From an uncultured Gammaproteobacteria bacterium (GTDB lineage: Bacteria; Patescibacteriota; Patescibacteriia; UBA9934; GWF2-40-263), in NCBI GenBank assembly GCA_964399675.1, contig CAYNRK010000001.1, positions 64,424 to 128,423 of the forward strand: DNA of 64,000 bases, given 5' to 3'. The notes beneath the pieces are model-generated. The model was not told the origin of the DNA and made no database searches. It saw nothing but the letters and a program-made list of their open reading frames with translations. This document shows positions 3,393 through 59,026 of this stretch, piece after piece (position 1 is the first letter of the stretch; every line of letters begins with the position of its first letter). A program made the translations under genes and the position numbers.

Positions 3393-3509
3393 ATGATTTG
3401 GATATTGTAAAAAACACATCCTTGTTGGGGTGTGTTTTCTGATTGAAATAAATAGAAGACCAGCGGTACTTTTCGATTGCTCGAATTCCCCGCTGGTATC
3501 GTTTGTGGT

Positions 3510-3713
3510 TCACTTTTCATTCGCCGCCAACACCCCGAAGATGATGCGCACCATGGCGGTGAAGGAAAAGAAGAAAACAATCATGGCAACCATCAGATGC
3601 CAGTCGTGTTTTTCTCCTCCGTTCAGGTAGACGAGCAGGTTTGCAGTCAGCCACGGCGGGAGAAGCCCCACAGCAAACGCAACAGGAATCAGCCAGACGC
3701 GTTTGTTTTTCAT
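3510..3713 (-). CDS. Small membrane protein (GC-rich islet)
   Basis: AAGGAG SD 6 nt upstream of the ATG on the minus strand; two TM segments; local GC ~55%. Confidence 0.35.
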   Translation of the reverse strand: MKNKRVWLIPVAFAVGLLPPWLTANLLVYLNGGEKHDWHLMVAMIVFFFSFTAMVRIIFGVLAANEK

Positions 3714-3732
3714 TTTTCTCCTTTTTTGTTGA

Positions 3733-3879
3733 TACTAGTAACCAGACCGCCACGCGCTAAAGTATCCGGCGCAGATACCGACAATCACCGCAAAGACCAA
3801 ATAGCCAATAACGATGGCCGAGATGTACACGACGCGTCTGAAGCGCGCAACTTTTTCGTCAACGAGTTTGGTTTCCACC
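3733..3879 (-). CDS. Small tail-anchored membrane protein (GC-rich islet)
   Basis: GTG start preceded by AAGGAG; C-terminal TM helix (VYISAIVIGYLVFAVIVGICAGYF). Confidence 0.3.
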
Positions 3880-3918
3880 GTCTTCTCCTTTGTTGTCACC
3901 ATCTAGGAGGTATATCAT

Positions 3919-4113
3919 GTGACTCACAGCCATGCTTGCAACACCCACCCTCAGAAGTACGACGAATACAGTCGGCGAATCAATGAGAAGACCGACAAAC
4001 AGGGTGCCGAAAAAGACAGTAGCACCAAAGCACAAGAGAACTTGGCTGATTTTTTTTCATTCCCTTCCCTCCTTTTTAGTTCGCCAACATCGCAAGCATT
4101 GCACCACCGCTAG
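3919..4113 (+). CDS. Small hydrophilic hypothetical protein
   Basis: GTG start 8 nt after a perfect AGGAGG SD; no similarity recognised. Confidence 0.25.
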   Translation: MTHSHACNTHPQKYDEYSRRINEKTDKQGAEKDSSTKAQENLADFFSFPSLLFSSPTSQALHHR

Positions 4114-4300
4114 TTACGATTGCTGCCACAAGCGTGCGTGCCCGGAGCAGGAACCAGAAGTCCCGCTCGTCACGGTCTGCCAATGTTCGTTGAATCCGTT
4201 CGTTCTTGACGCGGACGACGACATGGGCAACGAATGTCATCATAGCGAGCCAGAACAGGGCGTTCATCGCGAACATTCTCATTTCTGGTGTAGGTGTCAT
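4076..4300 (-). CDS. Small membrane protein (GC-rich islet)
   Basis: Hydrophobic N-terminal half, Arg-rich tail; start uncertain. Confidence 0.3.
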   Translation of the reverse strand: MTPTPEMRMFAMNALFWLAMMTFVAHVVVRVKNERIQRTLADRDERDFWFLLRARTLVAAIVTSGGAMLAMLAN

Positions 4301-4491
4301 GGATGTAACCTTCTTGTTGTAAGTGGTTGTGTCGATTACACCTTTACTTAATTGTAAAGAACACAGTATGATTACATGTTTCATAATTATTGTTAATAAT
4401 ATTTACTAAATAAGGCTTTGTTTTTAGCTAACTTGACAACAATATCAATACATGCTTTACTGCCTGTAAATAATTTCTACAACAAAAAGCT

Positions 4492-5220
4492 GTGTTGCAA
4501 GAGTTCATAAACAACTTTTATCTAAATGAAAAAGAAGCCAAAGTTTATTTGGCCACTTTGGAATTAGGCAGAAGCAGAGTCAGCAGAATCGCTAAAAAAG
4601 CAGGTTTAAATCGTATTACTGCCTATGAAGTACTCAAACGACTTACGGAAATGGGAATTGCTCAAAGTGCGATGTACAGCGGCATACAAACCTTTACAGT
4701 CGTGTCGCCGGAGATACTTGTAGAGAAAATGGAAAGCAGGCTCGCGGTTGCAAAGAACGTTTTGCCAGAACTTTCTTTACTCGCCGCGTCAAAAGCGCAT
4801 AAACCCGCGATCATGTTTTACGAAGGTGCAGAAGGTATTCGAAGCATCTATGAAGACTCACTCACCTGCAAAGAAAAAATCATTTTGAATGTAGCGCACC
4901 CACAAAATCTACTCAAAACGATCGGCAAAGATTTTTTTGCGCAATATGTGAAAAAACGAGTGAGACGCAATATCCAAGTGAACGTATTGCTACCTGATAC
5001 TCCAGAAAACAAAAAATTCAAGCGGGAAGTGAAGTCAGCCATGCGGCAAATAAAATTTTTTGATAACAAAAAATATCTATTACCAAACGAGATATTGATT
5101 TATGATAACAGAATCGCACTCCTCTCTTTTTCTGCGCTTATTGGCGTTGTTGTTGAAGACAAAGACATTGCACAATCAATGAAGTCATTGTGGCAAATGG
5201 TTTGGAACCATATTGGTTGA
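4492..5220 (+). CDS. TrmB-family transcriptional regulator
   Basis: N-terminal winged-HTH LNEKEAKVYLATLELG typical of TrmB family; GTG start. Confidence 0.6.
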   Translation: MLQEFINNFYLNEKEAKVYLATLELGRSRVSRIAKKAGLNRITAYEVLKRLTEMGIAQSAMYSGIQTFTVVSPEILVEKMESRLAVAKNVLPELSLLAASKAHKPAIMFYEGAEGIRSIYEDSLTCKEKIILNVAHPQNLLKTIGKDFFAQYVKKRVRRNIQVNVLLPDTPENKKFKREVKSAMRQIKFFDNKKYLLPNEILIYDNRIALLSFSALIGVVVEDKDIAQSMKSLWQMVWNHIG

Positions 5221-5293
5221 CGATTTCCAAAATTCACGGTAAAACAGTATTTTTTTTGGTCTCTGGCTCCTATATGATAAAATTAGAATACCT

Positions 5294-6577
5294 ATGAAAA
5301 AAACCGTAATTGAAAGAAAGCAGGAGAAAATATTGAGCAGGTCAGCGCGTCGTGAGCATGTTCAGGATTTAATTAAAATGACGCCAACTGGAAAGGGGGA
5401 TAATCTTTTAGGAAATCTACTTGATCAACTTTTGTTATTTGCTCATCAGTCCAGGGCTTCGGATATTCATTTTGAACCTATTCGAGAAAAGGGGATTATT
5501 CGAAATCGGATAGATGGTTTTTTACAAGATGAGTTCGAGCTTGATCTATCTTTGCATCACAGATTAATATCTCTTATCAAAGTGCACGGACGTCTTCGTA
5601 CAGACGAGCACCGTGTTGCACAAGATGGGCGTCTTTGGTTTGAAACACCTTCTGGAAATGTTGATGTTAGAATATCTTTGATCCCTGTTGAAGACGGAGA
5701 AAGATGTGTTTTAAGATTGCTTTCAAGTGAATCAAAAAGTTTTGGTCTTTCTTCTTTGGGATTGGTTGATTCAGATCTGGCTCGGATAAAACAATCCATT
5801 GATCAGCCATGGGGAATGATACTGACAACCGGGCCAACTGGTTGTGGAAAGACAACAACAATATATTCCTTATTGCAACTTTTAAATTCAAGGCAGTTTA
5901 ATATTGCCACTGTTGAAAATCCGGTAGAGTATTACATTTCCGGAATAAACCAGAGCCAGGTTGATCTAAACGCAGGATTCTCTTTTGCCGATGGGCTAAG
6001 GGCAATAATGCGACAAGATCCTGATATAATAATGGTTGGAGAGATTCGAGATATTGAAACAGCAAAAATTGCAGTAAATGCAGCCCTTACAGGACACAGG
6101 ATGTTTTCAACGCTTCATACAAACAATGCGTCTGCAGCAATTCCAAGACTTTTGGATCGAGGTGTTGAACCTTTTCTTGTTGCATCAACATTGATTTGCG
6201 CTGTTGGCCAACGTCTCTTACGCAAGGTGTGTTCGGATTGTTGGTCAAGTAAACCGTTTCAAAAAGAAAAAGCAGAAAAGATTTTTACTCAAAGTGCAAT
6301 AAAAACAATGTTTGGGAAACAGCAAACAATCGCGGTTGCTCAAGCGGTTGGATGTCCAAATTGTAACAACACAGGGTACAAGGGAAGGGTTGGGATGTTT
6401 GAGGTGCTAATGGTTTCGCCACAGATTCAAGATTTAATAATTTCACGCGCATCATCTAAACAGATTCAAGATCAAGCGATTAAAGAAGGCATGACTACTA
6501 TGTATGAAGATGCAGTGAGAAAGGTTCTGTCTCTTGAAACTTCAATTGAAGAATTTGTTAGGGTTATGTATATATGA
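5294..6577 (+). CDS. Type II/IV secretion-system ATPase (PilB/GspE family, short form)
   Basis: Walker A GPTGCGKTT, Asp/His boxes, C-terminal tetracysteine CSDCW...GCPNCNNTGYKGR. Confidence 0.85.
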   Translation: MKKTVIERKQEKILSRSARREHVQDLIKMTPTGKGDNLLGNLLDQLLLFAHQSRASDIHFEPIREKGIIRNRIDGFLQDEFELDLSLHHRLISLIKVHGRLRTDEHRVAQDGRLWFETPSGNVDVRISLIPVEDGERCVLRLLSSESKSFGLSSLGLVDSDLARIKQSIDQPWGMILTTGPTGCGKTTTIYSLLQLLNSRQFNIATVENPVEYYISGINQSQVDLNAGFSFADGLRAIMRQDPDIIMVGEIRDIETAKIAVNAALTGHRMFSTLHTNNASAAIPRLLDRGVEPFLVASTLICAVGQRLLRKVCSDCWSSKPFQKEKAEKIFTQSAIKTMFGKQQTIAVAQAVGCPNCNNTGYKGRVGMFEVLMVSPQIQDLIISRASSKQIQDQAIKEGMTTMYEDAVRKVLSLETSIEEFVRVMYI

Positions 6578-7494
6578 AAAAATTTGACTTCTTTCACAGC
6601 CTTAGTATTCAGTACAAAATTTTAATTGGATTTCTTGCGATTTTATTGATTACAAATGTAATTGGGATATTATCGTCATTTTCAATACAAAAACCAGAAG
6701 GTGACTTATTGGTTTTTAGTGAAAGTACTTTGCAAAAAATGAATACATTTCCCAGGTATAAAGATTCATTAAACGCGGCGGTTATTTCATCTTTGGAAGT
6801 GGTGAATAAAGCAGAAAAAAAGGAGCAGGCTCTTGACCAGATTGCAAAGGCGCAGCAGCACATGTATTTCTTTACAAGCAAACTTAAGGACACTGACAAC
6901 AATTTAACTGAAAGAATTGTTGAGTCGTTTACGGCTCTGAGTAATGAGTTAACAGAATTGGTTGAGTTGGCAGATCCGGATGGATATAGAAACGAACGCG
7001 CAGTATCAGCACAAGTCAAAGCTGCGCAGTTAGCTTATGCAAACACCCAAAGGATCAACCTGGATATTGTTGATAGAAATATTGCTCAAGAACAAAAGTT
7101 GTCACAGCTCTTTAATGAACAAGATCTTTCAAGAACTTCAAATGTTAATTGGTTGCTGCTAACACTTTTATTGGTTTTATTGGTTGGTCTTTCGTTGATT
7201 CTAACCGAAGTAATTTCCAAGCCAATTAACAGAATTCGTGTTGCAGTTGAAGAAATGGCAAAAGGTAATTTTACAGAAGCCATTGAGTTGTCATCAAAAG
7301 ATGAGATTGGTGAACTTGCAAGTTCATTTAAGCTGATGCGGGAGCAGATGCGGGTTTCACGTGATAATCTAGAACACAAAGTAAAAGAGAGAACAAAAGA
7401 ACTTGAAAACGCAATGACAGATCTTGAGCAAAAAGTTAAGGATCGAACGCGTGTGCTTGAGGAAGCATTGCAGAATTCGCAGAAAAGGAAGTAA
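6574..7494 (+). CDS. HAMP-domain membrane protein
   Basis: N-terminal TM, second TM followed by HAMP-like linker (PINRIRVAVEEMAKGNFTEAIE...DEIGELASSFKLM) and coiled coil; no kinase/MCP domain. Confidence 0.5.
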   Translation: MKKFDFFHSLSIQYKILIGFLAILLITNVIGILSSFSIQKPEGDLLVFSESTLQKMNTFPRYKDSLNAAVISSLEVVNKAEKKEQALDQIAKAQQHMYFFTSKLKDTDNNLTERIVESFTALSNELTELVELADPDGYRNERAVSAQVKAAQLAYANTQRINLDIVDRNIAQEQKLSQLFNEQDLSRTSNVNWLLLTLLLVLLVGLSLILTEVISKPINRIRVAVEEMAKGNFTEAIELSSKDEIGELASSFKLMREQMRVSRDNLEHKVKERTKELENAMTDLEQKVKDRTRVLEEALQNSQKRK

Positions 7495-7543
7495 GCAGGG
7501 CTTGCTAAATAAGGTTTTTTTTGTTATCTTTAGGCGGCATTGT

Positions 7544-7620
7544 GGGCATGTAGCTCAGGTGGTTAGAGCGCATCCCTGATAAGGATGAGGTCGGAGGTTC
7601 GAGTCCTCCCATGCCCACCA
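7544..7620 (+). tRNA. tRNA-Ile (anticodon GAU)
   Basis: Cloverleaf with acceptor GGGCATG/CATGCCC, anticodon loop CTGATAA, T-loop TTCGAGT, encoded CCA. Confidence 0.9.
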
Positions 7621-7625
7621 CAATT

Positions 7626-7700
7626 GCCGAGGTAGCTCAGTGGTAGAGCAGTGGACTGAAAATCCACGTGTCGAGAGTTCAATTCTCTCCCTCGGCACCA
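7626..7700 (+). tRNA. tRNA-Phe (anticodon GAA)
   Basis: Acceptor GCCGAGG/CCTCGGC, anticodon loop CTGAAAA, T-loop TTCAATT, encoded CCA. Confidence 0.9.
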
Positions 7701-7760
7701 TGAAAAAGCAGTCACTTAATTGTGGCTATTTTTTCATGAATAAAAACAAGCAACCAAAAA

Positions 7761-7790
7761 CAGCCGGTTTAAAACGGCTGTTTTTCATTT
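7761..7790 (+). terminator. Rho-independent terminator after the tRNA pair
   Basis: CAGCCGGTTTAAAACGGCTG hairpin followed by TTTTTC. Confidence 0.5.
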
Positions 7791-7916
7791 GTCTACTTTG
7801 TGATTGCAATGTTACTCCGAATATTTATCCGGCCTGAAGGCCGGATTCTGATTAATCTGAAAGACTAATCTCGACCTAAGACTATGTACCCAACTTTCGT
7901 TGAGCAAATATCCCTA

Positions 7917-9415
<1,499 letters not shown>

Positions 9416-9781
9416 AACTTTGATTTTTGAATCAAGCTCTGTCACCCTCTAAGCATTTTGCAAAGAGGGGTTGTAACCCGCCGTCGCTCCTTTGGAGCTA
9501 TGGCGGATAAAGGAATAACGTTGCAATCACACAATAGACAATTGTTTCATGTGTAATTGTTTGTAATAGACAGCCAATTGCTTTGGTTGAGCAAATGGCT
9601 TGGAATGGTATTTGGTTGTAATGATCAAGCGCCTGATTTTACAGCTCATTTTAAAACTCACTTGAGCGGATGCTCATAGTGAGTCGCTGAGCTAAGCCAA
9701 ATTGTGAAACCATCAGGTGGCAGCATTTTAGGAAATTATGGAAAACCTGTCAAGCCCCTTTGGGGAGTAGTTGTGGGAGGA

Positions 9782-9810
9782 TTGACATAAGGGTCAAAAT
9801 CAGGTATACT
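9782..9810 (+). promoter_or_regulatory. Consensus sigma70 promoter for the KH-trmD-pyrD operon
   Basis: TTGACA-17 nt-TATACT. Confidence 0.5.
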
Positions 9811-9917
9811 AAGCACCGTTAGTCACTGTATGTCCGGCACGCAACCATGCTTGTATAGGTCGACGGGCGAAAAGACAGTGACCACATTTAGTAGCGATAA
9901 CAACTGATGTAATAGTT

Positions 9918-10268
9918 ATGGCAGACCAAGAAATGGACCAAGCGTTTGTTGAATACATTGTCAGAGGCATTGTCAATCATCCGGATGATGTTAGGACAGA
10001 ACGTATTGTTGACGAGCGTGGCGTTCTCATCACTCTTCATATCAATCCAGAAGACATGGGATACGTTATTGGTCGACAGGGTCAGACAGCTCGTGCTATT
10101 CGAACTTTGCTCAAGATTGTTGGTGCAAAAGCAAATGCTCGCGTTAACCTCAAGATCTATGAGCCAGAAGGTTCACGACGTTCGTTTGAACGACGTGAAG
10201 ATTCTCGCGAGGAACCTTGTGAAAGTTCAACTGTAGATGAGGCGTCTGTAGACGATCTGGGAATCTAA
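9918..10268 (+). CDS. KH-domain RNA-binding protein (YlqC/UPF0109-like)
   Basis: VIGRQGQTARAIRTLLKIV = KH GXXG motif; this family classically sits between rpsP and trmD. Confidence 0.7.
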   Translation: MADQEMDQAFVEYIVRGIVNHPDDVRTERIVDERGVLITLHINPEDMGYVIGRQGQTARAIRTLLKIVGAKANARVNLKIYEPEGSRRSFERREDSREEPCESSTVDEASVDDLGI

Positions 10269-10318
10269 ACTAGATCAAAGAAAAAAAATCAGCTATGCTA
10301 GTCATAGTTGATTTTTTT

Positions 10319-11017
10319 ATGAAAAACAAAAAACTACAATTTGACGTGATAACTATCTTTCCCAAAATGATTGATTCTTATGTTTCTGAGTCGATTCTTG
10401 GCCGTGCTCAGAAAAAGAAGTTGATTAAAGTTAAGGCTCACAACTTACGTGATTTTACTTCAGACAAACATAAAACAGTTGATGACACACCTTATGGTGG
10501 CGGGCCTGGCATGTTGATGAAAGTCGAGCCTTTTGATAAAGCAATTAGAAAAATTAGAAGTTCCCCCCTTTTCAAGGGGGGATCAAGGGGGGTTAGCAGT
10601 AGGAAAAAAACTCGAGTCATTATCACTTCGGCTTCTGGAAAAACATTCACTCAAAAAGATGCAAAGCGTCTTGCCAAATATGACCAGCTAATTTTTCTTT
10701 GCGGCAGATACGAAGGAGTTGATCATCGTGTTGAAGAGAATCTTGCTGATGAGTCATTATCAATTGGGGAGTATGTGCTAACAGGAGGGGAATTGCCAGC
10801 GCTTGTTATGATTGATGCAATTTCAAGAATGGCGCCAGGTGTTTTAGGTTCAAAAGCTTCGCTTGAAACAGAGTCACATTCAAAAGAAGGCTTGCTTGAA
10901 TATCCTCAATTTACCAAACCGGAAGTTTACAAAAAAATGAAAGTTCCAGAAGTGTTGCTTAGCGGACACCATAAAGAGATTGAGAATTGGAAGCGCAAGC
11001 ACGAGCATAATAAATAA
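10319..11017 (+). CDS. trmD: tRNA (guanine37-N1)-methyltransferase TrmD, with a 14-aa in-frame insertion from a GC hairpin element
   Basis: FDVITIFPKMI..., YGGGPGM, LFLCGRYEGVDHRV, LSIGEYVLTGGELPA motifs; start set at the Met preceding KLQFDVITIFP. Confidence 0.88.
   Translation: MKNKKLQFDVITIFPKMIDSYVSESILGRAQKKKLIKVKAHNLRDFTSDKHKTVDDTPYGGGPGMLMKVEPFDKAIRKIRSSPLFKGGSRGVSSRKKTRVIITSASGKTFTQKDAKRLAKYDQLIFLCGRYEGVDHRVEENLADESLSIGEYVLTGGELPALVMIDAISRMAPGVLGSKASLETESHSKEGLLEYPQFTKPEVYKKMKVPEVLLSGHHKEIENWKRKHEHNK
10561..10597 (+). repeat. GC-rich hairpin mini-element (C6-N7-G6...GGGGGGTTAG) inserted in-frame in trmD
   Basis: TTCCCCCCTTTTCAAGGGGGGATCAAGGGGGGTTAGC; near-identical copy at 57023-57060, related copy at 20725-20762. 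Confidence 0.6.
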
Positions 11018-11018
11018 T

Positions 11019-12128
11019 ATGTTTGCAACTAGATTTCAAAAATTCGCTTATAAATATTTTGCAAAGCCATTCTTTTTTAAGCTTGATCCAGAGCAAGTTC
11101 ATGACCGCATTTGCCGTCTTGGACAAAAACTAGGCGATTCGTCTATTTGCCGCGCAGTAACAAAATGGCTTTTTGCTTTTGAGCATCCAATGCTAGAGCA
11201 GAAGATTCTTAACATCTCATTTAGGAATCCTGTTGGGCTTACTGCCGGGTTTGATAAGAATGCAGAGATGACTCAGATCATGCCATCGGTTGGATTTGGT
11301 TTTGAAATAGTTGGTTCAATTTCAGGTATGCCTTGTAAAGGCAATCCAGCTCCAAGACTTTGGAGACTTCCAAAATCAAAAGGTCTGGTTGTTTATTATG
11401 GATTGAAAAATGATGGTGCAGAAGTTATTGCTTCAAGATTACAAAAAAAGTCTTTTAAGATTCCTTTAGGCATCAGTGTTGTAAAAGCAAACTCAAAGGA
11501 GGTTGTTAGTGTGGAGGCTGGAATTGAGGATTACAAAAAAGCAATGAACACAATGAAAGATGTTGGGGATTTTTTTGTAATAAATATCAGTTGCCCAAAC
11601 GTATTTGGCGGGGAACCATTTGGAGATCCTGATCGGTTAGACGCGCTTTTAACTGAGCTTGATCAAATAGAAACTTCAAAACCAATCTTTCTAAAAATCG
11701 CTGTTGATATTTCGCCAAGTGAACTTGATGGGTTGGTTGAGGTTGCTGGTAGGCATCGTGTGCATGGTTTTATAATTTCAAATCTTACAAAGAAAAAGGA
11801 TCGTTCAACAATCGATCAATCAGAGTTGTCAGAAGAACAAAAGGGTGGAATTAGCGGTCGACCTACATTTAAACCATCGAATAAACTTATTTCACATTTA
11901 TATAAAACCACAGGGGATCGTTATGTAATTATTGGCGTAGGAGGAATTTTTTCAGCAGAGGATGCGTATGAGAAAATTATTCGCGGCGCGTCTTTGGTTC
12001 AACTTGCAACTGGAATGATTTTTAATGGACCCCAGTTGATTGGAGAGATTAATAAAGGTCTTGTGAGACTTTTGAAAAAAGATGGATTTGATTCCGTATC
12101 TGATGCAGTTGGGTCAAAATTTTTATAA
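11019..12128 (+). CDS. pyrD: Dihydroorotate dehydrogenase (class 2, quinone-dependent type)
   Basis: NPVGLTAGFDKN, GFGFEIVGSI, ISCPN and C-terminal GGI...ATGMIFNGP motifs. Confidence 0.85.
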   Translation: MFATRFQKFAYKYFAKPFFFKLDPEQVHDRICRLGQKLGDSSICRAVTKWLFAFEHPMLEQKILNISFRNPVGLTAGFDKNAEMTQIMPSVGFGFEIVGSISGMPCKGNPAPRLWRLPKSKGLVVYYGLKNDGAEVIASRLQKKSFKIPLGISVVKANSKEVVSVEAGIEDYKKAMNTMKDVGDFFVINISCPNVFGGEPFGDPDRLDALLTELDQIETSKPIFLKIAVDISPSELDGLVEVAGRHRVHGFIISNLTKKKDRSTIDQSELSEEQKGGISGRPTFKPSNKLISHLYKTTGDRYVIIGVGGIFSAEDAYEKIIRGASLVQLATGMIFNGPQLIGEINKGLVRLLKKDGFDSVSDAVGSKFL

Positions 12129-12148
12129 AAAGAAAAGCCGTGATCGAG

Positions 12149-12403
12149 TTAGATCACGGCATAGGGGTCAGAGGTCTCGATCAGAGTGAAGGTGATCGCG
12201 GTTGGATTGAAGACGAGCAAGCCAGCCTCCAGATCAATACGGAAAACCTCGATGACTTCAACGTTGGCTTCGGTGAGACCGGTTCGAGCTTTCTCTTTAT
12301 CAGAGAGTTTGCGAATCACGCCGACTGTGTCACCTACTCGTAGCAGGGCGTTGAGGTGGTTGGTGAGCGCAAGAATAGCATCACGCCTGGGATCGACGTT
12401 CAT
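12149..12403 (-). CDS. Hypothetical protein (GC-rich islet)
   Basis: 84-aa ORF, GC ~55%, convergent with pyrD; no family recognised. Confidence 0.3.
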   Translation of the reverse strand: MNVDPRRDAILALTNHLNALLRVGDTVGVIRKLSDKEKARTGLTEANVEVIEVFRIDLEAGLLVFNPTAITFTLIETSDPYAVI

Positions 12404-12462
12404 GATAGACCTCCGTTAGTATCCGCTCACGAGAAGTTTATGAGCGGGTAGAAAGGGGCGAG

Positions 12463-12957
12463 CTAAGCAGCAGCTCGCCTACGGTTGAGTTGGGCAAATG
12501 CTTTTGCCCAGTTTTTGAGCGAAACGTACTTTGGGTCGTAACCGCCCGAGCAGTTTGCGTATGCTCCACCTCCAGGATAGGGAAGGTGCTCTGTCATCAG
12601 GACTGATCGACGAGCTTCTTCATCCTCGCCAATCTGTTGACAGATGATCATTCCATTCATGTACCGATCAATCCCCATGAGCTGACCGGCCGTGTACAGA
12701 ACGATCCTGCGAACGTTGCGGCGGTAGGCTGTTCCCGCGAGCATTATTCCGCACGGAGAGTTGTTGTCAGAGTCTGGCCTCTCCTTGATCCAGGGATCAA
12801 CCATGATCGCTTCGATTGCCTCATCCGTGTCCGCTTTGGATCGGACGTATGCAACCGCTTCTGTGTAGTTGTCAAAGACGACCACGTCATGCTCAGGCAT
12901 TTGTTCTTGTGCTGCCTGGAGTTGGCGCGGATTGCAATCAACCACGAGAATGCGCAT
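12463..12957 (-). CDS. Hypothetical protein with receiver(REC)-like N-terminus (GC-rich islet)
   Basis: AGGAGGA SD 4 nt before the ATG; MRILVVDCN...VVVFDNYTEAVAYV resembles a CheY-like fold start but is degenerate. Confidence 0.4.
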   Translation of the reverse strand: MRILVVDCNPRQLQAAQEQMPEHDVVVFDNYTEAVAYVRSKADTDEAIEAIMVDPWIKERPDSDNNSPCGIMLAGTAYRRNVRRIVLYTAGQLMGIDRYMNGMIICQQIGEDEEARRSVLMTEHLPYPGGGAYANCSGGYDPKYVSLKNWAKAFAQLNRRRAAA

Positions 12958-13011
12958 GAGTCCTCCTATTAAAAAAAGCGTCTTCCAACAGAAAAGACGC
13001 ACTGAACCAAC

Positions 13012-13040
13012 CGGAATAGAATACGTCTCACAAACAAAAA
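13012..13040 (-). terminator. Rho-independent terminator downstream of rpsP
   Basis: Minus-strand GCGTCTTTTCTGTTGGAAGACGC hairpin followed by a T7 run. Confidence 0.5.
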
Positions 13041-13230
13041 CGATCGCTTGCGCGACGTATTCAGGTTTCCGTTCGCATCTTTCCCAAATGGGTTTGGATT
13101 TCGCACCTTATCTTTTCAGACAGGTTGCGGGCAGTTCATAGGGCCAATTCCCTCACTGCACTCTGAATACGTTTTCTTTAATTGTATTTAAAAAATAACA
13201 GGGATCAACTTTTTTGTCAATCCCTGAAAT

Positions 13231-13671
13231 TTATTCTTTTGTTTCTTCTTTTTTTGGTTCCTCTTCTTTTGCTTCCTTAGCAGGTGCTTCAGCCTTTGGT
13301 TCCTCTGCTGGCTTTTCTTCTTCAACCTCTTTTACCTCTTCGACTTCTTTAACCTCTTTACCCGTCTTTTCTTTCTCTTCCATCTTGGTCTTACGTTTCT
13401 TGCTAATGTGCGTAGCTGTTCGTTTCTTTCCCTCAATAACTTTTTCATCTACAAGCAAATTCCATAGCGTGTCAGTTGCTTCAGCGCCTTGGCCAAGCCA
13501 GTATTTGATTCGATCCGCTTTGACAACTAGTTCTCGGGGTTCCTTGCGAGGATTGTAATGCCCCAAAATTTCAAGAGAATTTGCCCATGGGTCGCGGTGT
13601 TTTGGCATAACCACGATTCGATAGATAGGGGCTTTCTTTTTTCCAACTCTTGATAATCTAATTGATAGCAT
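13231..13671 (-). CDS. rpsP: 30S ribosomal protein S16 with Lys/Glu-rich C-terminal extension
   Basis: MLSIRLSRVGKKKAPIYRIVV...NLLVDEKVIEG is the S16 core; the KE-rich low-complexity tail is encoded by the direct-repeat region 13261-13390. Confidence 0.9.
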   Translation of the reverse strand: MLSIRLSRVGKKKAPIYRIVVMPKHRDPWANSLEILGHYNPRKEPRELVVKADRIKYWLGQGAEATDTLWNLLVDEKVIEGKKRTATHISKKRKTKMEEKEKTGKEVKEVEEVKEVEEEKPAEEPKAEAPAKEAKEEEPKKEETKE

Positions 13672-13812
13672 AATTTGATATTATTTTGTCATTTTGAGCA
13701 GTTGACGATGTTCGGATAATAATGGATTAAAACAAAAAAGTCAATATACGTTTTTGTGTTTTGACAAGACAAGATATTTAGCTAACTTTAGTCAAATAAC
13801 TGTCCGTAGCTC

Positions 13813-13841
13813 TTGACAAACTTGCCAAAATGTGATATAGT
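13813..13841 (+). promoter_or_regulatory. Consensus sigma70 promoter of an orphan transcript
   Basis: TTGACA-17 nt-TATAGT. Confidence 0.45.
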
Positions 13842-13849
13842 AATGCGCG

Positions 13850-14005
13850 TAAAGGTAAAACAGACCTTAAAACTAAAACGTTTGGGGAGAGAGACCTAAA
13901 TCGTTCCGCTTACTTAAAAGTAAGCGATTATCTGGTATTTCCAGATAAAAAGCCGATTATTGGGTATTTCTTCCGGAAATGCCTAGTAGTCGGCTTTTTC
14001 GTTGA
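13850..14005 (+). ncRNA. Candidate small structured RNA (three hairpins, terminal T-run)
   Basis: Hairpins GCTTACT/AGTAAGC, TATCTGG/CCAGATA, AGCCGA...TCGGCT followed by TTTTT; only an 18-codon ORF inside. Confidence 0.3.
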
Positions 14006-14082
14006 TTGAGCAATGAAAGTTTCTGATAATCAGTTTCAGTGATTTTCACCGCTCAACCAACGGCACCAAAGGAGCCAACACC

Positions 14083-14697
14083 ATGCGGACCTTCAAGCTT
14101 CTGGCACTCGGTTACATCGCGATTCTCGTGACCGTGGGCCTGACCCACGAGTACGAGAACACGGCCGCCGCCGCTCCCGCCGCGACCACGGACACCGACC
14201 TGTCCGGGTCGGTCATGGCGAGCCTGGTCCTGCACCAGGCCGCAACGAACGGAGTCGGGCCCGTCATGCTCGCCATCGCCACTCCCTCCGTCACCGCCCT
14301 GACCGTCGACTCGGAGCCTCACGACGCGCACATCGCCGCGTACTACGAGCAGGCCGAGGACCACGACGCGCACGTGCGGGAGTACTACTCCCAGAACAGC
14401 GCCAGCGCCGACGCCGAGGAGACCGACGCCGAGGTCATGACCTTCACCGTGGCCGAGGTCGAGCTCGGGTCCGACCTCCACGGAGAGGGCGAGATCGAGG
14501 TCGTCGACCTCGACGAGGTCTCGGGTTCGGAGATTCCGGGCTTCGAGATGGTCGTGGGGGAGACCGAGCAGGTCGAGCTCACCGAGGACGACTTCGCGCC
14601 CGAGCTGAGCGCCACCGTGGTTGCCTCGGTCAGGCCCGGTCTGGAGCAGGTCACCTTCTCGGAGACCCGCGCCTCGGAGCTGCTCGGCTGGCAGTAA
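14083..14697 (+). CDS. Secreted/membrane-anchored acidic hypothetical protein (GC-rich island)
   Basis: AGGAG SD 8 nt upstream; N-terminal TM/signal; D/E-rich; GC ~65%. Confidence 0.5.
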   Translation: MRTFKLLALGYIAILVTVGLTHEYENTAAAAPAATTDTDLSGSVMASLVLHQAATNGVGPVMLAIATPSVTALTVDSEPHDAHIAAYYEQAEDHDAHVREYYSQNSASADAEETDAEVMTFTVAEVELGSDLHGEGEIEVVDLDEVSGSEIPGFEMVVGETEQVELTEDDFAPELSATVVASVRPGLEQVTFSETRASELLGWQ

Positions 14698-14749
14698 CGA
14701 CTCGGGCAATTCTGCCCACTCGGGCCGGTCCACTCTGGATCGGCCCGCT

Positions 14750-14789
14750 CACCTGAGACTTTGAACAAAGTTCGAAGCATCAGGTGAGG
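14750..14789 (+). repeat. Island hairpin repeat R (CACCTGAG...TCAGGTGAGG), copy 1
   Basis: Identical 40-bp core again at 15235-15274; variants at 15741-15837, 16710-16747, 17789-17828. Confidence 0.7.
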
Positions 14790-14829
14790 CTCAACCCGTA
14801 CTGCATCAGGCAGATTAGAGAGAGGCACC

Positions 14830-15156: not shown

Positions 15157-15234
15157 AAAAGCAACCGCGTTCGAGCGCGGTAATCGAGCCGTGCTCGAAC
15201 CCACCTCAGGTCAAGTTATGCTTCTTGGCCACCC

Positions 15235-15274
15235 CACCTGAGACTTTGAACAAAGTTCGAAGCATCAGGTGAGG
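15235..15274 (+). repeat. Island hairpin repeat R, copy 2
   Basis: Exact repeat of 14750-14789. Confidence 0.7.
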
Positions 15275-15293
15275 CAACCATAAGAGCGAGAAG

Positions 15294-15443: not shown

Positions 15444-15450
15444 GAGGTCA

Positions 15451-16747: not shown

Positions 16748-16768
16748 GCAATCCGACAAGGAGGTCTA

Positions 16769-45992: not shown

Positions 45993-46049
45993 GTGAGACC
46001 TCCTTTTTCAGAATCAATTTAGTATTGATTTTGAGAAAAGGAGGGACTC

Positions 46050-48022: not shown

Positions 48023-48065
48023 TCGGCTAACCACCGACTTTTCTATTTGTAGTTGGAATCCCTAT

Positions 48066-49091
48066 TTACGAAAAGATCCTTTCGCAAAATGTTCTTAAAT
48101 TTTTTGGCTTGCTTACAAATTCTACGCGGCGGGCATGACGCTCAAACATTTCCATTTGCATCTCAACATCAAAAATGACGTAACGCGCGCCAATCCATGT
48201 TGTATGCAAAATATTGTATGCGTAAAGAAAAACACCACATGAAAGATCTTCAAACGAAAAAGGCTGTGTTTGTTTGTAAACAGAAAGGAAAGTCTTGGCA
48301 AGTTCAAAGTTTTTATCTGACCAACCTGTGTCAAAACAATTGAGAAACAGTGCGCGCGTGACTTCAAGACTTCTAGGGCCAAGTGCTGCACGTTCAAGGT
48401 CATAGACATGACTCACTTGTTCTGATGAATCAATAAAAGTATTTAGATATTGAAAATCTCCATGCAAAAGACAATCGTGTGGTTGAATGAGTTTGTCTTT
48501 TGCAAAGTGCATTCTTTTTGATATTTGTTCTTTTCTATCGAGAAGTTCGAGAATTTCTTTTTCAATACCAGATAGAGCTGGGCGCTTTGAAAGTTGATAA
48601 CGAATTTCAGCACTTTCCATTAAAAGTTTTCTTGGATCTCCAATTCGAATATGTTGAAACGTTGGTTCATTGAACTGTTGACCAGCATAGTGAAATTGAG
48701 CTAGAGTGCTGGCGAGCGAAGTGATAGTTGTTTCGTTAATTTCTTCTGCCTCAGGGCTTCTGCCTTCAATAAAAGGAAACAAACTAAACCATCTACCATC
48801 AAACCAAAAAACCTCACGACCGAACCGGTCTTTGATTGGAAGAATAATTGGAAGGCCATGGCGGGAGAAATATTCCTCAGCGAGTTTTATCTGATAGACA
48901 ACAGTACTAACACGATTTCGATACTCTTTAAAAAAGAAAACTCCTTGAGGAGTTTCCAAACGAAAATTTTGACTCATGAATCCTCCGTGGACAAATTTGT
49001 GTGAGGTGATTTCATCAATTCCAAACAAATCCTTAAGAACCATTGGAAGTCGCTCAAAATCGATCGGAGCATGAAGAATCGGGGTATTCAT
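48066..49091 (-). CDS. Phosphotransferase-family kinase (APH / choline-ethanolamine kinase fold)
   Basis: Brenner catalytic motif LLHGDFQYLN and downstream VYDLERAA (D-x-E/D) characteristic of the APH fold. Confidence 0.6.
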   Translation of the reverse strand: MNTPILHAPIDFERLPMVLKDLFGIDEITSHKFVHGGFMSQNFRLETPQGVFFFKEYRNRVSTVVYQIKLAEEYFSRHGLPIILPIKDRFGREVFWFDGRWFSLFPFIEGRSPEAEEINETTITSLASTLAQFHYAGQQFNEPTFQHIRIGDPRKLLMESAEIRYQLSKRPALSGIEKEILELLDRKEQISKRMHFAKDKLIQPHDCLLHGDFQYLNTFIDSSEQVSHVYDLERAALGPRSLEVTRALFLNCFDTGWSDKNFELAKTFLSVYKQTQPFSFEDLSCGVFLYAYNILHTTWIGARYVIFDVEMQMEMFERHARRVEFVSKPKNLRTFCERIFS

Positions 49092-50180: not shown

Positions 50181-50263
50181 TGTCATTGCGAGGAGGCTCG
50201 TTCGACGGGCCGACGCGGCAATCCTCGTATACGAAGATTGCTTCGCTAGCGCTCGCAATGACA
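50181..50263. repeat. MITE-like palindromic element (GTCATTGCGAGG / GCTCGCAATGAC TIRs)
   Basis: GTCATTGCGAGGAGGCTCGTTCGACGGGCCGACGCGGCAATCCTCGTATACGAAGATTGCTTCGCTAGCGCTCGCAATGAC. Confidence 0.65.
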
Positions 50264-50274: not shown

Positions 50275-50685
50275 ATGAAAACAAGTTCAGAACAAAAAAC
50301 AAAACAAATTGCAGCTGACTTTGCAAAAACACTCAAAGGCGGTGAGGTTGTGTTTTTAAAAGGAGATTTGGGAACAGGGAAGACAACGTTTGTCAGAGGA
50401 GTTGCAGAGGCGTTTGGATTTAAAGAACCTGTTAGAAGTCCAACTTTTACAATAATGAATTTGTATCAAACAGATAATTTTCAAATCGTTCACTTGGATT
50501 TTTATCGCTTTACTTCATTTCAGGAGATTCAAGCTCTTGGACTTGAAGAGTATCTTGGCCAGAAAGATTCAATTGTTTTTATTGAATGGCCAGAAAAAGG
50601 AATTGAGGAAAATAAAATATCGCCAACACATCAGATTGAATTTGAAACAAAAAAAGACTCAGAAAGGTCTATAAAAATTAGCTGA
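50275..50685 (+). CDS. tsaE: tRNA threonylcarbamoyladenosine biosynthesis protein TsaE (YjeE)
   Basis: P-loop GDLGTGKTTFVRG, ...SPTFTI..., HLDFYR. Confidence 0.8.
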   Translation: MKTSSEQKTKQIAADFAKTLKGGEVVFLKGDLGTGKTTFVRGVAEAFGFKEPVRSPTFTIMNLYQTDNFQIVHLDFYRFTSFQEIQALGLEEYLGQKDSIVFIEWPEKGIEENKISPTHQIEFETKKDSERSIKIS

Positions 50686-50689
50686 AATA

Positions 50690-50905
50690 GAAACGCCCCG
50701 CCTCAGGAGGAGACGGGGCAGGGAGGAGGAGTCGAGCCGAAGCTCGACTGGAGCACTTGCCGAGCCGAAGCTCGGGTTCGGGGATCTCGCCTTGACGAGC
50801 CGGTCAGGCGAACGACGGGTCGCGCAGCAGGGTCGACGGGCAGTGGGACCAAAGCATAGGGCTTTCCCTCCAGGGACTCGACTTCGGGGGTGGATCTGTT
50901 CTCGA
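50690..50905. other. GC-rich (~65%) structured non-coding segment between tsaE and pilB-like
   Basis: Serial hairpins AGTCGAGCCGAAGCTCGACT, GCCGAGCCGAAGCTCGGGTTCGGG, TCGCCTTGACGAGCCGGTCAGGCGA; no ORF with SD. Confidence 0.3.
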
Positions 50906-51035
50906 ACGGCGCGATCGGATCAAGTAGTATTATAGAGCATATTTGGTTGATGTCAATTTATTGTGGATAAAAAAAGACTGGGGACTAGGTGCTAGGATTT
51001 GAATTCCTAGTTCCCAGGCCCCAGACTCATTAATA

Positions 51036-53838: not shown

Positions 53839-53940
53839 CCTCCTCTTGCGTCATTGCGAGGAGGCCCGTTCGACGGGCCGACGAAGCAATCTTCGTACAC
53901 GAGGATTGCCGCGGCCCGTCTGACGGGCCTCGCAATGACA
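53839..53940. repeat. MITE-like palindromic element (GTCATTGCGAGGAGG / CCTCGCAATGAC TIRs), internally duplicated core
   Basis: Two internal copies of the GGCCCGT.CGACGGGCC motif between canonical TIRs. Confidence 0.65.
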
Positions 53941-53950
53941 CAATATTTAT

Positions 53951-56992: not shown

Positions 56993-57022
56993 ATAAAAAT
57001 ATTCCGCTAGACGGCTGCTTGT

Positions 57023-57060
57023 TCTCCCCCTTTTCAAGGGGGAGCTAGAGGGGGTTAGGC
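57023..57060. repeat. GC-rich hairpin mini-element, intergenic copy
   Basis: TCTCCCCCTTTTCAAGGGGGAGCTAGAGGGGGTTAGGC; near-identical to the trmD insert. Confidence 0.6.
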
Positions 57061-57271
57061 CTCAAGCAGGGATCCAAACGGGGCTAGAATTAATTAAGAT
57101 TAACGGGGCGAGTTTAGCGTAAAGATGAAAAAAGGTCAAGATTTGACAAAACGTCAAAATCATGGTTAACTGTAAGTACTTAGTTGAGGTTTACCTTCAA
57201 TACTAGTGTCCGAAAAGAGCTCCCTAGAAATTATGGGGGTTCTTTTTGTATTTCGTTTATCCCGGGTTCAT

Positions 57272-57347
57272 GGGCCTGTGGAGGTAATCGGTAACCTCGA
57301 CTAAGTTGACGCTAGTAGCTGCCGGTTCGAATCCGGTCGGGTCCACC
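57272..57347 (+). tRNA. Atypical tRNA-like gene (anticodon UGA, C37), copy 2
   Basis: GGGCCTG-TG-GAGG-TAATCGGTAA-CCTC-G-ACTAA-GTTGACG-CTAGT-AGCT-GCCGG-TTCGAAT-CCGGT-CGGGTCC-A-CCA; ~85% identical to 28239-28314 rc. Confidence 0.55.
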
Positions 57348-57391
57348 ACGTAAAGCCAGCTAAGCTGGCCACGTGGTAAACCAATGGCCCG

Positions 57392-57432
57392 GGACCAAAT
57401 AAATCCACCTTTAAGTTTAGGTGGATTTATTT
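57392..57432 (+). terminator. Terminator downstream of tRNA-like copy 2
   Basis: AAATAAATCCACCT-TTAAGTTT-AGGTGGATTTATTTTTT; same stem sequence as the terminator after copy 1. Confidence 0.5.
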
Positions 57433-57498
57433 TTTGAAATTGAAAAGCCGGCCCAGAAGGTTGGGGCCGGCAGATTGAGTGGACGAGCCGAGGTTGGC

Positions 57499-58911
57499 TC
57501 AGAGTCCGTAGTTGTCTTCGCGTCGCAAGCGGCGCATGGGGTAGCCAAGCGGGCCGGCGAACATGGCACGTTCGAAGCGGCTGGCTGCCGGATCCACGGC
57601 GAACTCGAACGCCTTGGTTCCGGTTTCGAAGTATGCCGAGAGCCAGGCAAATCCTGGGATGAGCTTGTGGCTGCGACCGGCCAGCTTGCACACTCCGATC
57701 GAGAGTACTCCGCACGCGAGTCCGTTTGCGAACGCAATGCCCAGCAGCATCATTCCCGCGAGATGGGGTTCGAGGAGTAGTGCGGTTGTTCCGGTCACTG
57801 CGAGCGTTGTGAGCATGCCTGCCCAATGAGTTCCGTCGCTCACGCGCGGCAGGTTCTTCACGAACAGGAAGGCGAACATGACTGGCATGCCGATCCCGAG
57901 CGCCCAGAAGACTATGATCGGGATGAGAACGCAGAAGGTCCAGACCATCATCAGCGAGCCCGCGAAGATGAGTGTGAACATGCGCGTGCAGAATCCGATC
58001 GTATAGCGTGCGAACCCAAGCTCTTCGAGCTTGTCGAGTCGGCGGGCTAGACAAGCCTGATTGTGAGCTTCCTGGATTACCGTGAGTGGGACTTTGTCGA
58101 CTCGGACTGCTTCGCGCTCGGCTTCGCTCAGCTCTTGCCCATCTGAGATCATGTTTCCAGCCATGATGATTGCGGCCCAGCACAAGAAGAAGATCAGGCC
58201 AACCCCCGCATCTCTTGTTGGAAGAGTGGTCCATATCACTTCGATAAGCAAGCTGGTCCAGACCAGGCTGAACGTTACTCGCGCGATTGCGTGTGCGTAC
58301 GTGAGACGCAGCTCCGGACTCGTGCGGAAGTTCTCAGCCTTGGCGCTGCACCAGCGACCAAAGCGCTTGAACATGTTCACGATCCCACCTGGCAGGACGA
58401 ACACGAACAGAAAGAACGCGATCAGAACCACATCGGTGAACCACTTGAAGATCAGATCCGAGACACCTTGGTCACGCAATCTGTCCTTGAAAGCGCTGAC
58501 TGCGATTCCTTGAGCGACTATGATAAGGACCATGGTGAATGCGGCCGGGCAAAGCGCTGCCAGTAGGGCTCCGCTGAGCGTACCGCCACCTTCTGCAAGA
58601 AGAGGTTCCCAGCCATGGCCCACGATTGGTGGAACCAAAGCCGTGACACCCACGAACAGGTACAGCCAGATACGACCGTTCCAGAGCGTGGTTCTGGCAG
58701 CACTTGCTCGCTTGGAAGAGCACGCCCAAGCCGTTTTGGCCGAGCTGACTGCGAGCTCCCAGATTGGCTTGTGGTAGTAGCCGAGCAGGAATCCGGCAGT
58801 GCAGGCCAGAAGCCCGACGAACATGCCAGCCCATGCGAACAGCAGAATCCCGAGCGTTCCGCCCAGAACTCCGCCCACGAAGTTGCGAAGATTGAAGGTG
58901 CGATTGTCCAT
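57499..58911 (-). CDS. Polytopic membrane protein (GC-rich islet)
   Basis: GGAGGG SD before ATG (MDNRTF...); ~10 TM helices; GC ~60%. Confidence 0.55.
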   Translation of the reverse strand: MDNRTFNLRNFVGGVLGGTLGILLFAWAGMFVGLLACTAGFLLGYYHKPIWELAVSSAKTAWACSSKRASAARTTLWNGRIWLYLFVGVTALVPPIVGHGWEPLLAEGGGTLSGALLAALCPAAFTMVLIIVAQGIAVSAFKDRLRDQGVSDLIFKWFTDVVLIAFFLFVFVLPGGIVNMFKRFGRWCSAKAENFRTSPELRLTYAHAIARVTFSLVWTSLLIEVIWTTLPTRDAGVGLIFFLCWAAIIMAGNMISDGQELSEAEREAVRVDKVPLTVIQEAHNQACLARRLDKLEELGFARYTIGFCTRMFTLIFAGSLMMVWTFCVLIPIIVFWALGIGMPVMFAFLFVKNLPRVSDGTHWAGMLTTLAVTGTTALLLEPHLAGMMLLGIAFANGLACGVLSIGVCKLAGRSHKLIPGFAWLSAYFETGTKAFEFAVDPAASRFERAMFAGPLGYPMRRLRREDNYGL

Positions 58912-59026
58912 TTGACCCTCCTCACTCACACACTACCGATTGATTTCGGTATATGCAAATGGTTGGGAAGTTTAGTTAAAATTGTTGGTTTTGTCAAGGT
59001 TTATTAGTTTTGTTAAAGAAAAAACA

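Follow-up and report, generated by a model that had tools for sequence, protein, structure and literature searches.

In a 64-kb stretch of contig CAYNRK010000001.1, all of which is called the window here, ten blocks rich in guanine plus cytosine (GC) interrupt an AT-rich chromosome. Judged from its TsaD protein, whose best GTDB relatives at only ~50% identity were Falkowbacteria, Parcubacteria and other Patescibacteria, the host is a member of the Patescibacteria. We think it probable that these blocks, or islets, are accessory units acquired by horizontal exchange from a pool that is richer in GC and largely Patescibacterial. They would be small accessory blocks forming the flexible genome of a Patescibacteria (candidate phyla radiation, CPR) bacterium and would occupy a limited set of slots between conserved blocks of core genes. 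Entry into these slots, or replacement within them, would have taken place by horizontal exchange without an integrase of their own. Since the islets carry no mobility genes, they were presumably acquired by uptake of DNA (transformation) followed by recombination. The source pool, from which we infer the transfers to have come, would be GC-richer than the window genome and, where it could be traced, itself Patescibacterial.

Composition of the islets

The islets had 50-69% GC each and together covered ~15.4 kb (24% of the window), with rRNA and tRNA left out of the total. Mean GC content of the window was 43%, and that of the background with islets and rRNA masked was 38.6%. The high-GC segments in the GC profile lay at 3461-4340 (50% GC), 12141-13000 (52%), 13981-19860 (56%, with a maximum of 69% at 14.1-14.7 kb), 27021-28340 (54%), 31481-31940 (53%), 43101-44840 (57%), 46041-48080 (54%), 50621-51020 (53%) and 57201-59000 (56%). 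A first-pass annotation of the same DNA had pointed to these nine islets, amounting to about 22% of a chromosome of about 38% GC; all nine were borne out by the profiles, and the estimates of share and background were close to those measured. A tenth segment, with 51% GC, was added at 32853-33420 (32.85-33.4 kb) and is referred to as islet 5b, the others being numbered 1 to 9 along the window.

The GC content of 500-bp sub-windows varied with a standard deviation (SD) of 0.076, compared with 0.022 expected if the sequence were homogeneous, and at the islet junctions it changed by 15-30 points inside 100 bp. GC content at third codon positions (GC3) averaged 0.68 (range 0.52-0.93) in the 22 islet genes, a value that is perhaps slightly inflated because some islet gene models were picked partly by frame, and 0.31 (range 0.23-0.44) in the 44 host genes. 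The two ranges did not overlap (Mann-Whitney p = 5e-11), in agreement with the earlier claim that a very high GC3 in the islets stands beside AT-rich codon usage in host genes. The first and second codon positions (GC1 and GC2) were shifted as well, so that amino acid composition was altered. Non-coding DNA inside the islets had 51.7% GC, compared with 36.9% in host intergenic DNA. As the spacers were also GC-rich, the effect belongs to whole DNA blocks and goes beyond codon usage. Translational selection was ruled out as the cause of the high GC3, since the spacers were GC-rich too and rpsP, the sole ribosomal protein gene of the window, was not.

The GC-normalised dinucleotide distance (δ*) between the pooled islets and the host was 120, compared with 57 +/- 22 within the host. 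Distances among islets were ~70 and those between islets and host 92-213, indicating that the islets resembled one another more than they resembled the host. When ~60 reference loci were compared by dinucleotide signature, the 14 nearest to the pooled islets all belonged to the same Patescibacteria family as the window. GC3 was 2.4 times more dispersed in islet genes than in host genes (SD 0.114 vs 0.048, Levene p = 4e-5). Correlation of relative synonymous codon usage was dropped as a measure, because high-GC members of the family and an unrelated Spartobacteria locus could not be separated by it (r 0.63 vs 0.67).

The GC peak at 7.5-9.5 kb was an ordinary one, consisting of the 16S rRNA gene and two tRNA genes. 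Rfam matched only 16S rRNA, tRNAs and an S-adenosylmethionine (SAM) riboswitch in the window, and at E <= 1 no credible family was found in islets 3, 5, 5b, 7 and 8 or at the left border of islet 9. In the islets scanned against Rfam, the GC peaks are thus not due to known structured RNA. By composition the islets are foreign blocks with discrete edges, that is, compositional islands.

Islet junctions in separate assemblies

Look-ups of the exact RpsP and Upp proteins returned contigs from 12 accessions, namely four samples of the Joint Genome Institute (JGI; 3300009375, 3300009107, 3300008625 and 3300009128), four assemblies of the European Nucleotide Archive and four Logan runs, which came from different pipelines and some of which are possibly re-assemblies of one read set. 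The matching contigs spanned positions 3231-23671 and 34118-54762 of the window, covering islets 1-3 and 6-8, and nearly all of them were 100% identical to the window across every junction of these islets. FAM476, the protein encoded by islet 9, was found on four JGI contigs. That reads of a high-GC organism had been joined to a low-GC contig by chimeric assembly or mis-binning is extremely unlikely: nothing beyond the composition itself speaks for it, and the junctions of islets 1-3 and 6-8, being base-for-base the same in separate assemblies, are not chimeras. Moreover, the units are neatly bracketed by promoters, Shine-Dalgarno sites and terminators, and the same slot behaviour was seen in relatives. 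Mis-assembly, for which the first-pass annotation had asked that the junctions be checked, can be set aside for these six islets.

The copies L001-L014 were nearly all 100% identical over up to 20 kb, and only L012 differed, with 3 mismatches. Such near-total identity across a dozen accessions points to a clonal population or closely linked samples. The codes of the samples (SUTE22-1, SCRA20-1) resemble those of the Ocean Microbiomics Database.

Slots between core genes in related genomes

A metagenome scan with PilB yielded ~25 loci of one family (PilB 57-80% identical), in which the core genes followed the order h217-h226-(h469/h482)-S1-FtsH-h364-PilB-TsaE-TsaD-(APH)...upp. Core GC3 ranged from 0.28 to 0.70 over these ~25 loci. 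The islets of the window stand out so strongly because its core, with a GC3 of 0.31, sits at the AT-rich end of the family.

Slot emptiness and refilling were compared for islets 6a, 7a, 8 and 9, no usable comparators being available for islets 1-5. For these four the orthologous position in relatives was empty or differently filled. Most relatives had nothing in the h226-S1 and PilB-TsaE slots, where S1 abutted h226/h469 and PilB abutted TsaE, and FAM476 was missing from the slot of islet 9 in most of them. The h226-S1 slot was filled in the window (islet 9) and in L057, L069, L071, L086 and L088. Non-homologous GC-rich genes lay in the same slots as window islets in L057, L069, L071 and L088, and in L083 the slot of islet 4 held two non-homologous open reading frames (ORFs). 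The spacing between PilB and TsaE varied from 60 bp to ~6 kb across relatives, and the region from tsaD to upp was also variable. Thus related genomes filled one and the same slot with different genes, the behaviour of a flexible island.

In L088 the h226-S1 slot contained an 8-kb islet of seven genes (3328-11341) with GC3 of 0.76-0.92, compared with 0.48-0.62 in the core; its cargo included two FAM476 paralogs and a MopE-like protein, and the adjoining S1 gene had the lowest GC3 in the locus. About one third of L069 (3101-5640 and 13723-21734) consisted of islets of ~60% GC beside a core of 46%. The same mosaic was observed in L055 at 13263-14222 and 16622-17269.

Source of the traceable islet genes

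The best matches of upp were found in Falkowbacteria, Uhrbacteria and other Patescibacteria at 50-56% identity, the same range as that of the host TsaD against GTDB. In a neighbour-joining tree the window copy fell into one clade with that of the syntenic relative L051, and the gene was located downstream of tsaD, with its orientation conserved, in L051, L055, L057 and L070. Pairwise identity of upp within the family was 46-58%, which is not above that to Uhrbacteria or Falkowbacteria, and the copy of L070 was 68% identical to one from Falkowbacteria. Over the same genomes PilB, FtsH and TsaD were 56-93% identical. The upp identities do not track those of core genes, and repeated exchange within the phylum is the simplest reading of this. 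The gene was GC-richer than most of its neighbours in all eight Patescibacteria genomes compared (GC3 0.46-0.86; L051, L054, L055, L057, L070, L083, L084 and the window, including one Uhrbacteria and one Falkowbacteria), the excess being only marginal in L054.

For FAM476 only 3 matches were obtained in a word-indexed search of 5.8 billion proteins, and 12 relatives below 1e-10 in a profile search of 1.84 billion representatives. All retrievable contexts were housekeeping ones (S1-FtsH-PilB, RNase J/tRNA synthetase, NifU/NifS and RNase P RNA). L086 and L088 each carried two FAM476 paralogs directly upstream of S1-FtsH-h327-PilB, in the slot and orientation of the window copy, which was itself nearer to non-syntenic copies (44-46%) than to these slot-resident ones (20-30%). 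The copies in L015, L016, L085, L086 and L088 had GC3 of 0.59-0.88 compared with 0.48-0.69 in their flanks; in L087 the excess was small (GC3 0.50). The I7b protein of islet 7 was 48% identical over 260 aa to the product of a gene adjoining APH in L059, in the same neighbourhood as in the window. Homologs and gene context give upp, FAM476 and I7b, the three islet genes that could be traced, a Patescibacterial affinity.

These three genes bear directly on the explanation given by the first-pass annotation, namely repeated pilus-mediated uptake of DNA from one high-GC organism outside the CPR, plausibly the host of an epibiont, followed by integration. The part of it that stands is that the islets are compositionally foreign and no artefact, which fits horizontal acquisition; the single donor and the high-GC host found no support, and we regard them as rather improbable. 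A single donor is refuted for upp, FAM476 and I7b, which are Patescibacterial and either syntenic or slot-resident in relatives; the annotation had itself named best matches in the lineage of the flanking genes as the finding that would speak against its model, and all three testable genes gave that result. The mutual likeness of the GC-rich islets in dinucleotide signature would fit one donor, but the nearest signatures came from family members and not from the available non-CPR references of 56-60% GC. The spread of GC3 among the islets is likewise hard to reconcile with one genome, though unequal residence times could also widen it. The GC3 of 0.93 in gene I3a of islet 3 is typical of a genome of ~68-70% GC, most of the cargo consists of ORFans without a detected Patescibacterial homolog, and type IV pilus and T2SSE genes, whose role in uptake is only putative, are present, all of which agrees with such a donor. 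On the other hand, the search of 5.8 billion proteins, among them those of the same metagenomes, yielded no close donor copy of FAM476.

A second alternative is that the islet genes are long-resident accessory genes whose GC content was raised in situ by a slot-specific process such as GC-biased gene conversion or a local mutational bias. It would account for the syntenic or slot-resident position of upp, FAM476 and I7b, for their elevated GC in almost every genome whatever the GC content of the core (GC3 0.59-0.88 in six FAM476 copies and 0.50 in L087; 0.46-0.86 in upp), and for the family-like dinucleotide signature. However, the junctions are sharp within <100 bp and adjoining core genes show no rise in GC, the S1 gene of L088 being the lowest of its locus. 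Neither the upp identities nor the greater closeness of the window FAM476 to non-syntenic copies fits long residence, and the shift in amino acid composition (GC1 and GC2) also argues against it. Furthermore, we know of no bacterial process that raises GC3 from 0.3 to 0.9. In-situ elevation is unlikely for these reasons. The sharp junctions, the core flanks without elevation and the upp identities that do not follow the core all favour turnover over in-situ change.

Evidence weighing against exchange from a Patescibacterial pool

Several observations count against the account of horizontal exchange from a GC-richer Patescibacterial pool. Approximately 19 of the 22 islet genes had no detectable homolog, so some of them may come from outside the Patescibacteria; the clearest candidate for such an origin is I3a (68% GC), whose GC3 of 0.93 exceeds that of every family core seen (maximum 0.70). 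No islet gene had a match above 56% identity that could mark its donor, which would mean that the transfers were not recent or that they came from unsampled lineages; their GC signal is nonetheless un-ameliorated. No recombination tracts, direct repeats or mobility genes that would reveal an insertion mechanism were found. When conserved and non-conserved DNA was compared in ~20 loci, a GC-rich accessory pattern was clear in only five (the window, L069, L071, L062 and L082), and a universal occurrence of GC-rich accessory DNA in the family was rejected. Finally, slot genes reached GC3 of ~0.75-0.9 in several relatives whose cores already had 44-55% GC, so an account based on an AT-rich recipient is incomplete.

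This last observation raises the tentative idea, which we think possible without favouring it, that the family keeps a compositionally autonomous accessory pool, with GC3 of ~0.75-0.9 at fixed slots irrespective of how GC-rich the core of the recipient is (core GC3 of 0.31 in the window, 0.44 in L055, 0.50 in L086 and 0.55 in L088). If true, this would imply one of two things: that a GC-rich reservoir, for example a replicon or sister lineage, supplies the slots, or that a process specific to the slots, for example strong biased gene conversion, raises their GC content. Transferred DNA is usually AT-richer than its recipient, and the GC-rich accessory DNA of several relatives is the reverse of this rule.

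Exchange from a GC-richer pool would mean that islet units replace one another at fixed slots and are drawn, probably, from within the phylum and not from a host cell. It suggests that in a streamlined, ultra-small genome around one quarter of a region may be given over to very small transcription units of a plug-in kind, and it bears on how CPR epibionts might vary their cell surface and their equipment for nucleotide salvage. GC-rich islets in epibiont genomes should accordingly not be read as host DNA.

Architecture and cargo of the units

A scan for promoters and terminators showed that most islets were bracketed as transcription units, with a sigma-70 promoter, a Shine-Dalgarno site and an intrinsic terminator; the positions of these elements are given with each islet below. 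The promoters were near-consensus and lay in AT-rich DNA just outside the GC-rich block. Strong GGAGG-type Shine-Dalgarno sites were visible by reading ahead of islet ORFs, as had been remarked before. With promoter, Shine-Dalgarno site and terminator of their own, most units would be predicted to be expressed wherever they land.

The cargo consisted mostly of ORFan small membrane or secreted proteins, together with an SNase-like lipoprotein, upp and one small RNA (sRNA)-like unit. At least one transmembrane (TM) segment was predicted in 13 of the 22 islet products, and a function at the cell envelope or host interface may be supposed for the ORFan products on this ground. Pfam matched only SNase and UPRTase among 20 islet ORFs, consistent with the earlier description of the cargo as small membrane proteins plus a nuclease and upp. 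PHROG and NCBIfam gave nothing among the ten islet proteins scanned with each.

Such units resemble phage morons, and the islets could be moron-like remnants of a GC-rich mobile replicon (a prophage, plasmid or integrative element). Their promoter-gene-terminator organisation with a GC content unlike that of the surroundings, their cargo of small membrane proteins and a nuclease, typical of such elements, and two paralogous atypical tRNA genes that abut islets 4 and 9 and have no counterpart in 18 relatives would be in keeping with this origin. However, none of ten islet proteins matched PHROG, the Pfam scan of islet ORFs revealed no integrase, transposase, relaxase or capsid domain, and a repeat search of the whole window found no flanking direct repeats and no duplicated 3' part of a tRNA at a far end. 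In addition, IMG/VR contained no relatives of FAM476, I7b, I6a (the SNase-like protein) or the repeat motifs, and I6a had no plasmid match by tblastn. We give this origin little credence.

Description of the individual islets

Islet 1 (3461-4384, minus strand) contained three small membrane-protein ORFs at 4076-4384 (102 aa), 3735-3902 (55 aa) and 3510-3713 (67 aa), with 1-2 predicted TM segments each and GC3 of 0.56-0.68 in a block of 50% GC. These ORFs agreed with the JGI gene calls; Pfam was silent on the plus-strand ORFs tried first.

Islet 2 formed a unit on the minus strand (12137-13220) with promoter 13220-13192 and terminator 12160-12137. Its genes I2a (12463-12957, 164 aa) and I2b (12149-12403, 84 aa) had GC3 of 0.57-0.60 (block 52% GC) and no Pfam or NCBIfam match. 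A SAM-I riboswitch was located at 13072-13173 (minus strand; Rfam RF00162, 60.9 bits), and it controls the two ORFan genes of the unit, which are unusual cargo for such an S-box. The N-terminus of I2a, MRILVVD, resembles a receiver or Rossmann-type strand; a single-sequence AlphaFold (AF2) model of the protein was unusable, with a predicted local distance difference test score (pLDDT) of 45.

Islet 3 (13813-19826, plus strand) was a one-strand array of 6 kb with ~ten short genes between promoter 13813-13841 and terminator 19779-19826. The genes were I3a (14083-14697), I3b (14830-15156), small ORFs (15296-15687), I3c (16770-16991), I3d (17188-17703), I3e (17938-18396), I3f (18587-18931), I3g (18942-19163) and I3h (19321-19656), with GC3 of 0.64-0.93 in a block of 56% GC (peak 69%). 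The products were mostly small TM proteins, without matches in Pfam, PHROG or NCBIfam, and no Rfam family was found in the islet. Within 14698-19320 (plus strand) two families of intercistronic hairpin modules were repeated, type A at 14742, 15227, 15684-15840 and 17732-17830 and type B at 17002-17150, 18402-18530 and 19170-19282; a few compensatory changes were visible in them. The 10-mer TCAGGTGAGG occurred six times in the islet, always on the plus strand, compared with 0.09 copies expected. An exact scan for the hairpin motifs found none in IMG/VR or in the JGI metagenome collection, the latter evidently lacking the contig of the window itself. A stretch of ~1 kb (15688-16769) had neither an ORF nor an Rfam match. 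As explanations of the region at 15.7-16.8 kb and the repeated modules, neither a group II intron nor an integron nor a known sRNA found support. The leader of the array (13842-14082, plus strand, ~240 nt) was AT-rich and contained a terminator-like hairpin with a T-run at 13950-13996. Lying between the promoter and the first gene, this hairpin could be an attenuator or a riboregulator of unrecognised type.

Islet 4 (27021-28230, plus strand, 54% GC) carried I4a (27096-27611, 171 aa, GC3 0.69) followed by terminator 27633-27651, and a second unit with promoter 27665-27693, I4b (27754-28134, 126 aa, GC3 0.57) and terminator 28160-28177. No family matches were obtained for its proteins in Pfam, PHROG or NCBIfam. 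Islet 5 (31481-31940, plus strand, 53% GC) contained I5 (31510-31854, 114 aa, Cys-rich), preceded by a GGAGG Shine-Dalgarno site and followed by terminator 31873-31888; the coding signal of I5 was weak (GC3 0.53). In islet 5b (32798-33446, plus strand, 51% GC) promoter 32798-32825 preceded I5b (32853-33341, 162 aa, GC3 0.57), which had a signal peptide/TM region, 2 predicted TM segments and no Pfam match, and a hairpin followed at 33418-33446.

In islet 6 (43101-44840, 57% GC) the gene for the SNase-like lipoprotein I6a (43119-43910, plus strand; Pfam SNase, 24.1 bits) was convergent with upp (44118-44762, minus strand; UPRTase, 173 bits), the latter having promoter 44817-44789 and terminator 44090-44075. 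From its predicted products, a secreted SNase-like lipoprotein and a UPRTase, the islet looks like a nucleic-acid salvage pair. Islet 7 (46041-48080, plus strand, 54% GC) comprised I7a (46050-46829, 259 aa, GC3 0.52) and I7b (47222-48022, 266 aa, GC3 0.59), with no Pfam, PHROG or NCBIfam matches.

Islet 8 (50690-50956, minus strand) was an sRNA-like unit of ~230 nt between pilB and tsaE. It had a perfect promoter (12/12, TTGACA-16-TATAAT, 50956-50929), a strong intrinsic terminator (50720-50694) and several GAGCCGAAGCTC hairpins. None of its ORFs had a coding signal, it matched no Rfam family, relatives contained nothing similar to it by blastn, and the fold was unexceptional (z = -1.0 to -1.8). 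With these signals the unit looks like an RNA gene of ~230 nt. Islet 9 (57430-58997, minus strand, 56% GC) encoded FAM476 (57499-58929), a multi-pass membrane protein of 476 aa with ~9 TM segments and GC3 of 0.69, behind promoter 58997-58969 and ahead of a GC-rich terminator hairpin at ~57430-57475. The likely start of FAM476 was the ATG at 58912, downstream of a GGAGG site.

Paired tRNA genes next to islets 4 and 9

Two tRNA genes with anticodon UGA abutted islets with their 3' ends, gene A (28240-28315, minus strand) next to islet 4 and gene B (57272-57348, plus strand) next to islet 9. Both were found by ARAGORN and by the Rfam tRNA model (51 bits and 33.7 bits, respectively). Each folds into a class-I cloverleaf with a 4-nt variable loop and the anticodon for the serine codon UCA, and each combines this with the alanine identity set G3:U70 + A73 and with C at position 37. 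If alanyl-tRNA synthetase (AlaRS) charged them, UCA would be read as alanine. The genes are paralogous, being 76% identical including ~10 nt upstream and a common downstream hairpin AAATCCACCT..AGGTGGATTT; gene B has an insert of 36 nt after the CCA. No tRNA was found at the corresponding position in any of the 18 relatives scanned, and the two genes therefore seem to have arrived with the insert. If the family does keep an autonomous accessory pool, the pair may be part of its vehicle.

Comparison with known systems

Streamlined CPR genomes with compositionally deviant islands and transferred genes have been described in Patescibacteria, with up to 13% of genome length attributed to horizontal gene transfer (HGT) and a cargo including restriction-modification and membrane functions (PMC12455944). 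Most traceable transfers into Patescibacteria come from other Patescibacteria, with which the Patescibacterial source pool proposed here agrees (PMC12455944). In comparison with those islands, the islets of the window take up 24% of 64 kb at 0.3-6 kb each, exceed the core in GC without exception and reappear in identical slots throughout the family. The islets belong with the HGT islands already described in Patescibacteria and work like flexible islands at conserved slots; unusual here are the tiny units, the bias towards high GC and the high local density.

The flexible islands of marine bacteria such as Prochlorococcus and Alteromonas, of the replacement or additive type, occupy the same slots between core genes, which related genomes fill with cell-envelope genes that differ and often are not homologous. 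Mobility genes are absent from these islands, and their exchange is presumed to proceed via recombination in the conserved flanks. Whereas these islands usually extend over tens of kb with lower or similar GC content, those of the window are micro-islands of far higher GC that usually consist of one transcription unit apiece. A phage moron brings its own promoter, gene(s) and terminator as a self-contained unit; its GC content is unlike that of its surroundings, and its functions are accessory and often concern the membrane. The window has this unit architecture but not the prophage context, as there was no PHROG or IMG/VR match; its units sit in the chromosome between housekeeping genes instead.

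Islet 3 resembles an integron cassette array in its short one-strand ORFan genes, mostly for membrane proteins, and in its imperfect-hairpin modules of ~100-150 nt. In contrast to an integron, no integron integrase adjoins it, the flanking ORFs being rpsP and SMC, and the Pfam families listed for the source contig include no integrase. The modules form two sequence families instead of attC sites conserved in structure only, reading revealed no R''/R' core sites, and the islet as a whole is bracketed by one outside promoter and one terminator. Islets 4 and 9 lie directly 3' of a tRNA-type gene as in tRNA-linked integrative islands, but here no integrase is present, no partial tRNA direct repeat occurs at the far end, and the tRNA genes themselves are atypical paralogs. 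Since these defining features were looked for and not found, the islets are not an integrase-type tRNA island, an integron or prophage morons.

Other features of the window

The 16S rRNA gene (7918-9415, minus strand) stands alone, with no 23S or 5S rRNA gene in the window, and genes for tRNA-Ile and tRNA-Phe adjoin it on the opposite strand. The first-pass annotation had described an rpsP-KH-trmD neighbourhood split by this gene and two islets. That description was wrong, as the 16S gene lies upstream of KH instead of separating rpsP from KH-trmD; rpsP is on the opposite strand from KH-trmD, and the two are non-adjacent in two relatives that carry either gene.

Adjoining islet 6, an AT-rich island with 30-34% GC, compared with 38.6% in the background, extends from 37191 to 42749. 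It is a classical low-GC defence island and contains a helix-turn-helix (HTH) gene, an ORF of 329 aa, a ResIII/Eco57I-type restriction-modification enzyme of 1319 aa and a T5orf172 protein. A repeat that is GC-rich and palindromic, GTCATTGCGAGG...CGACGGGCC..., occurs at 19873-19931, ~23260, 50182-50245 and 53850-53942. It lies between genes as well as at the 5' end annotated for a gene that encodes a protein of 364 aa, where it probably marks a mis-called start codon.

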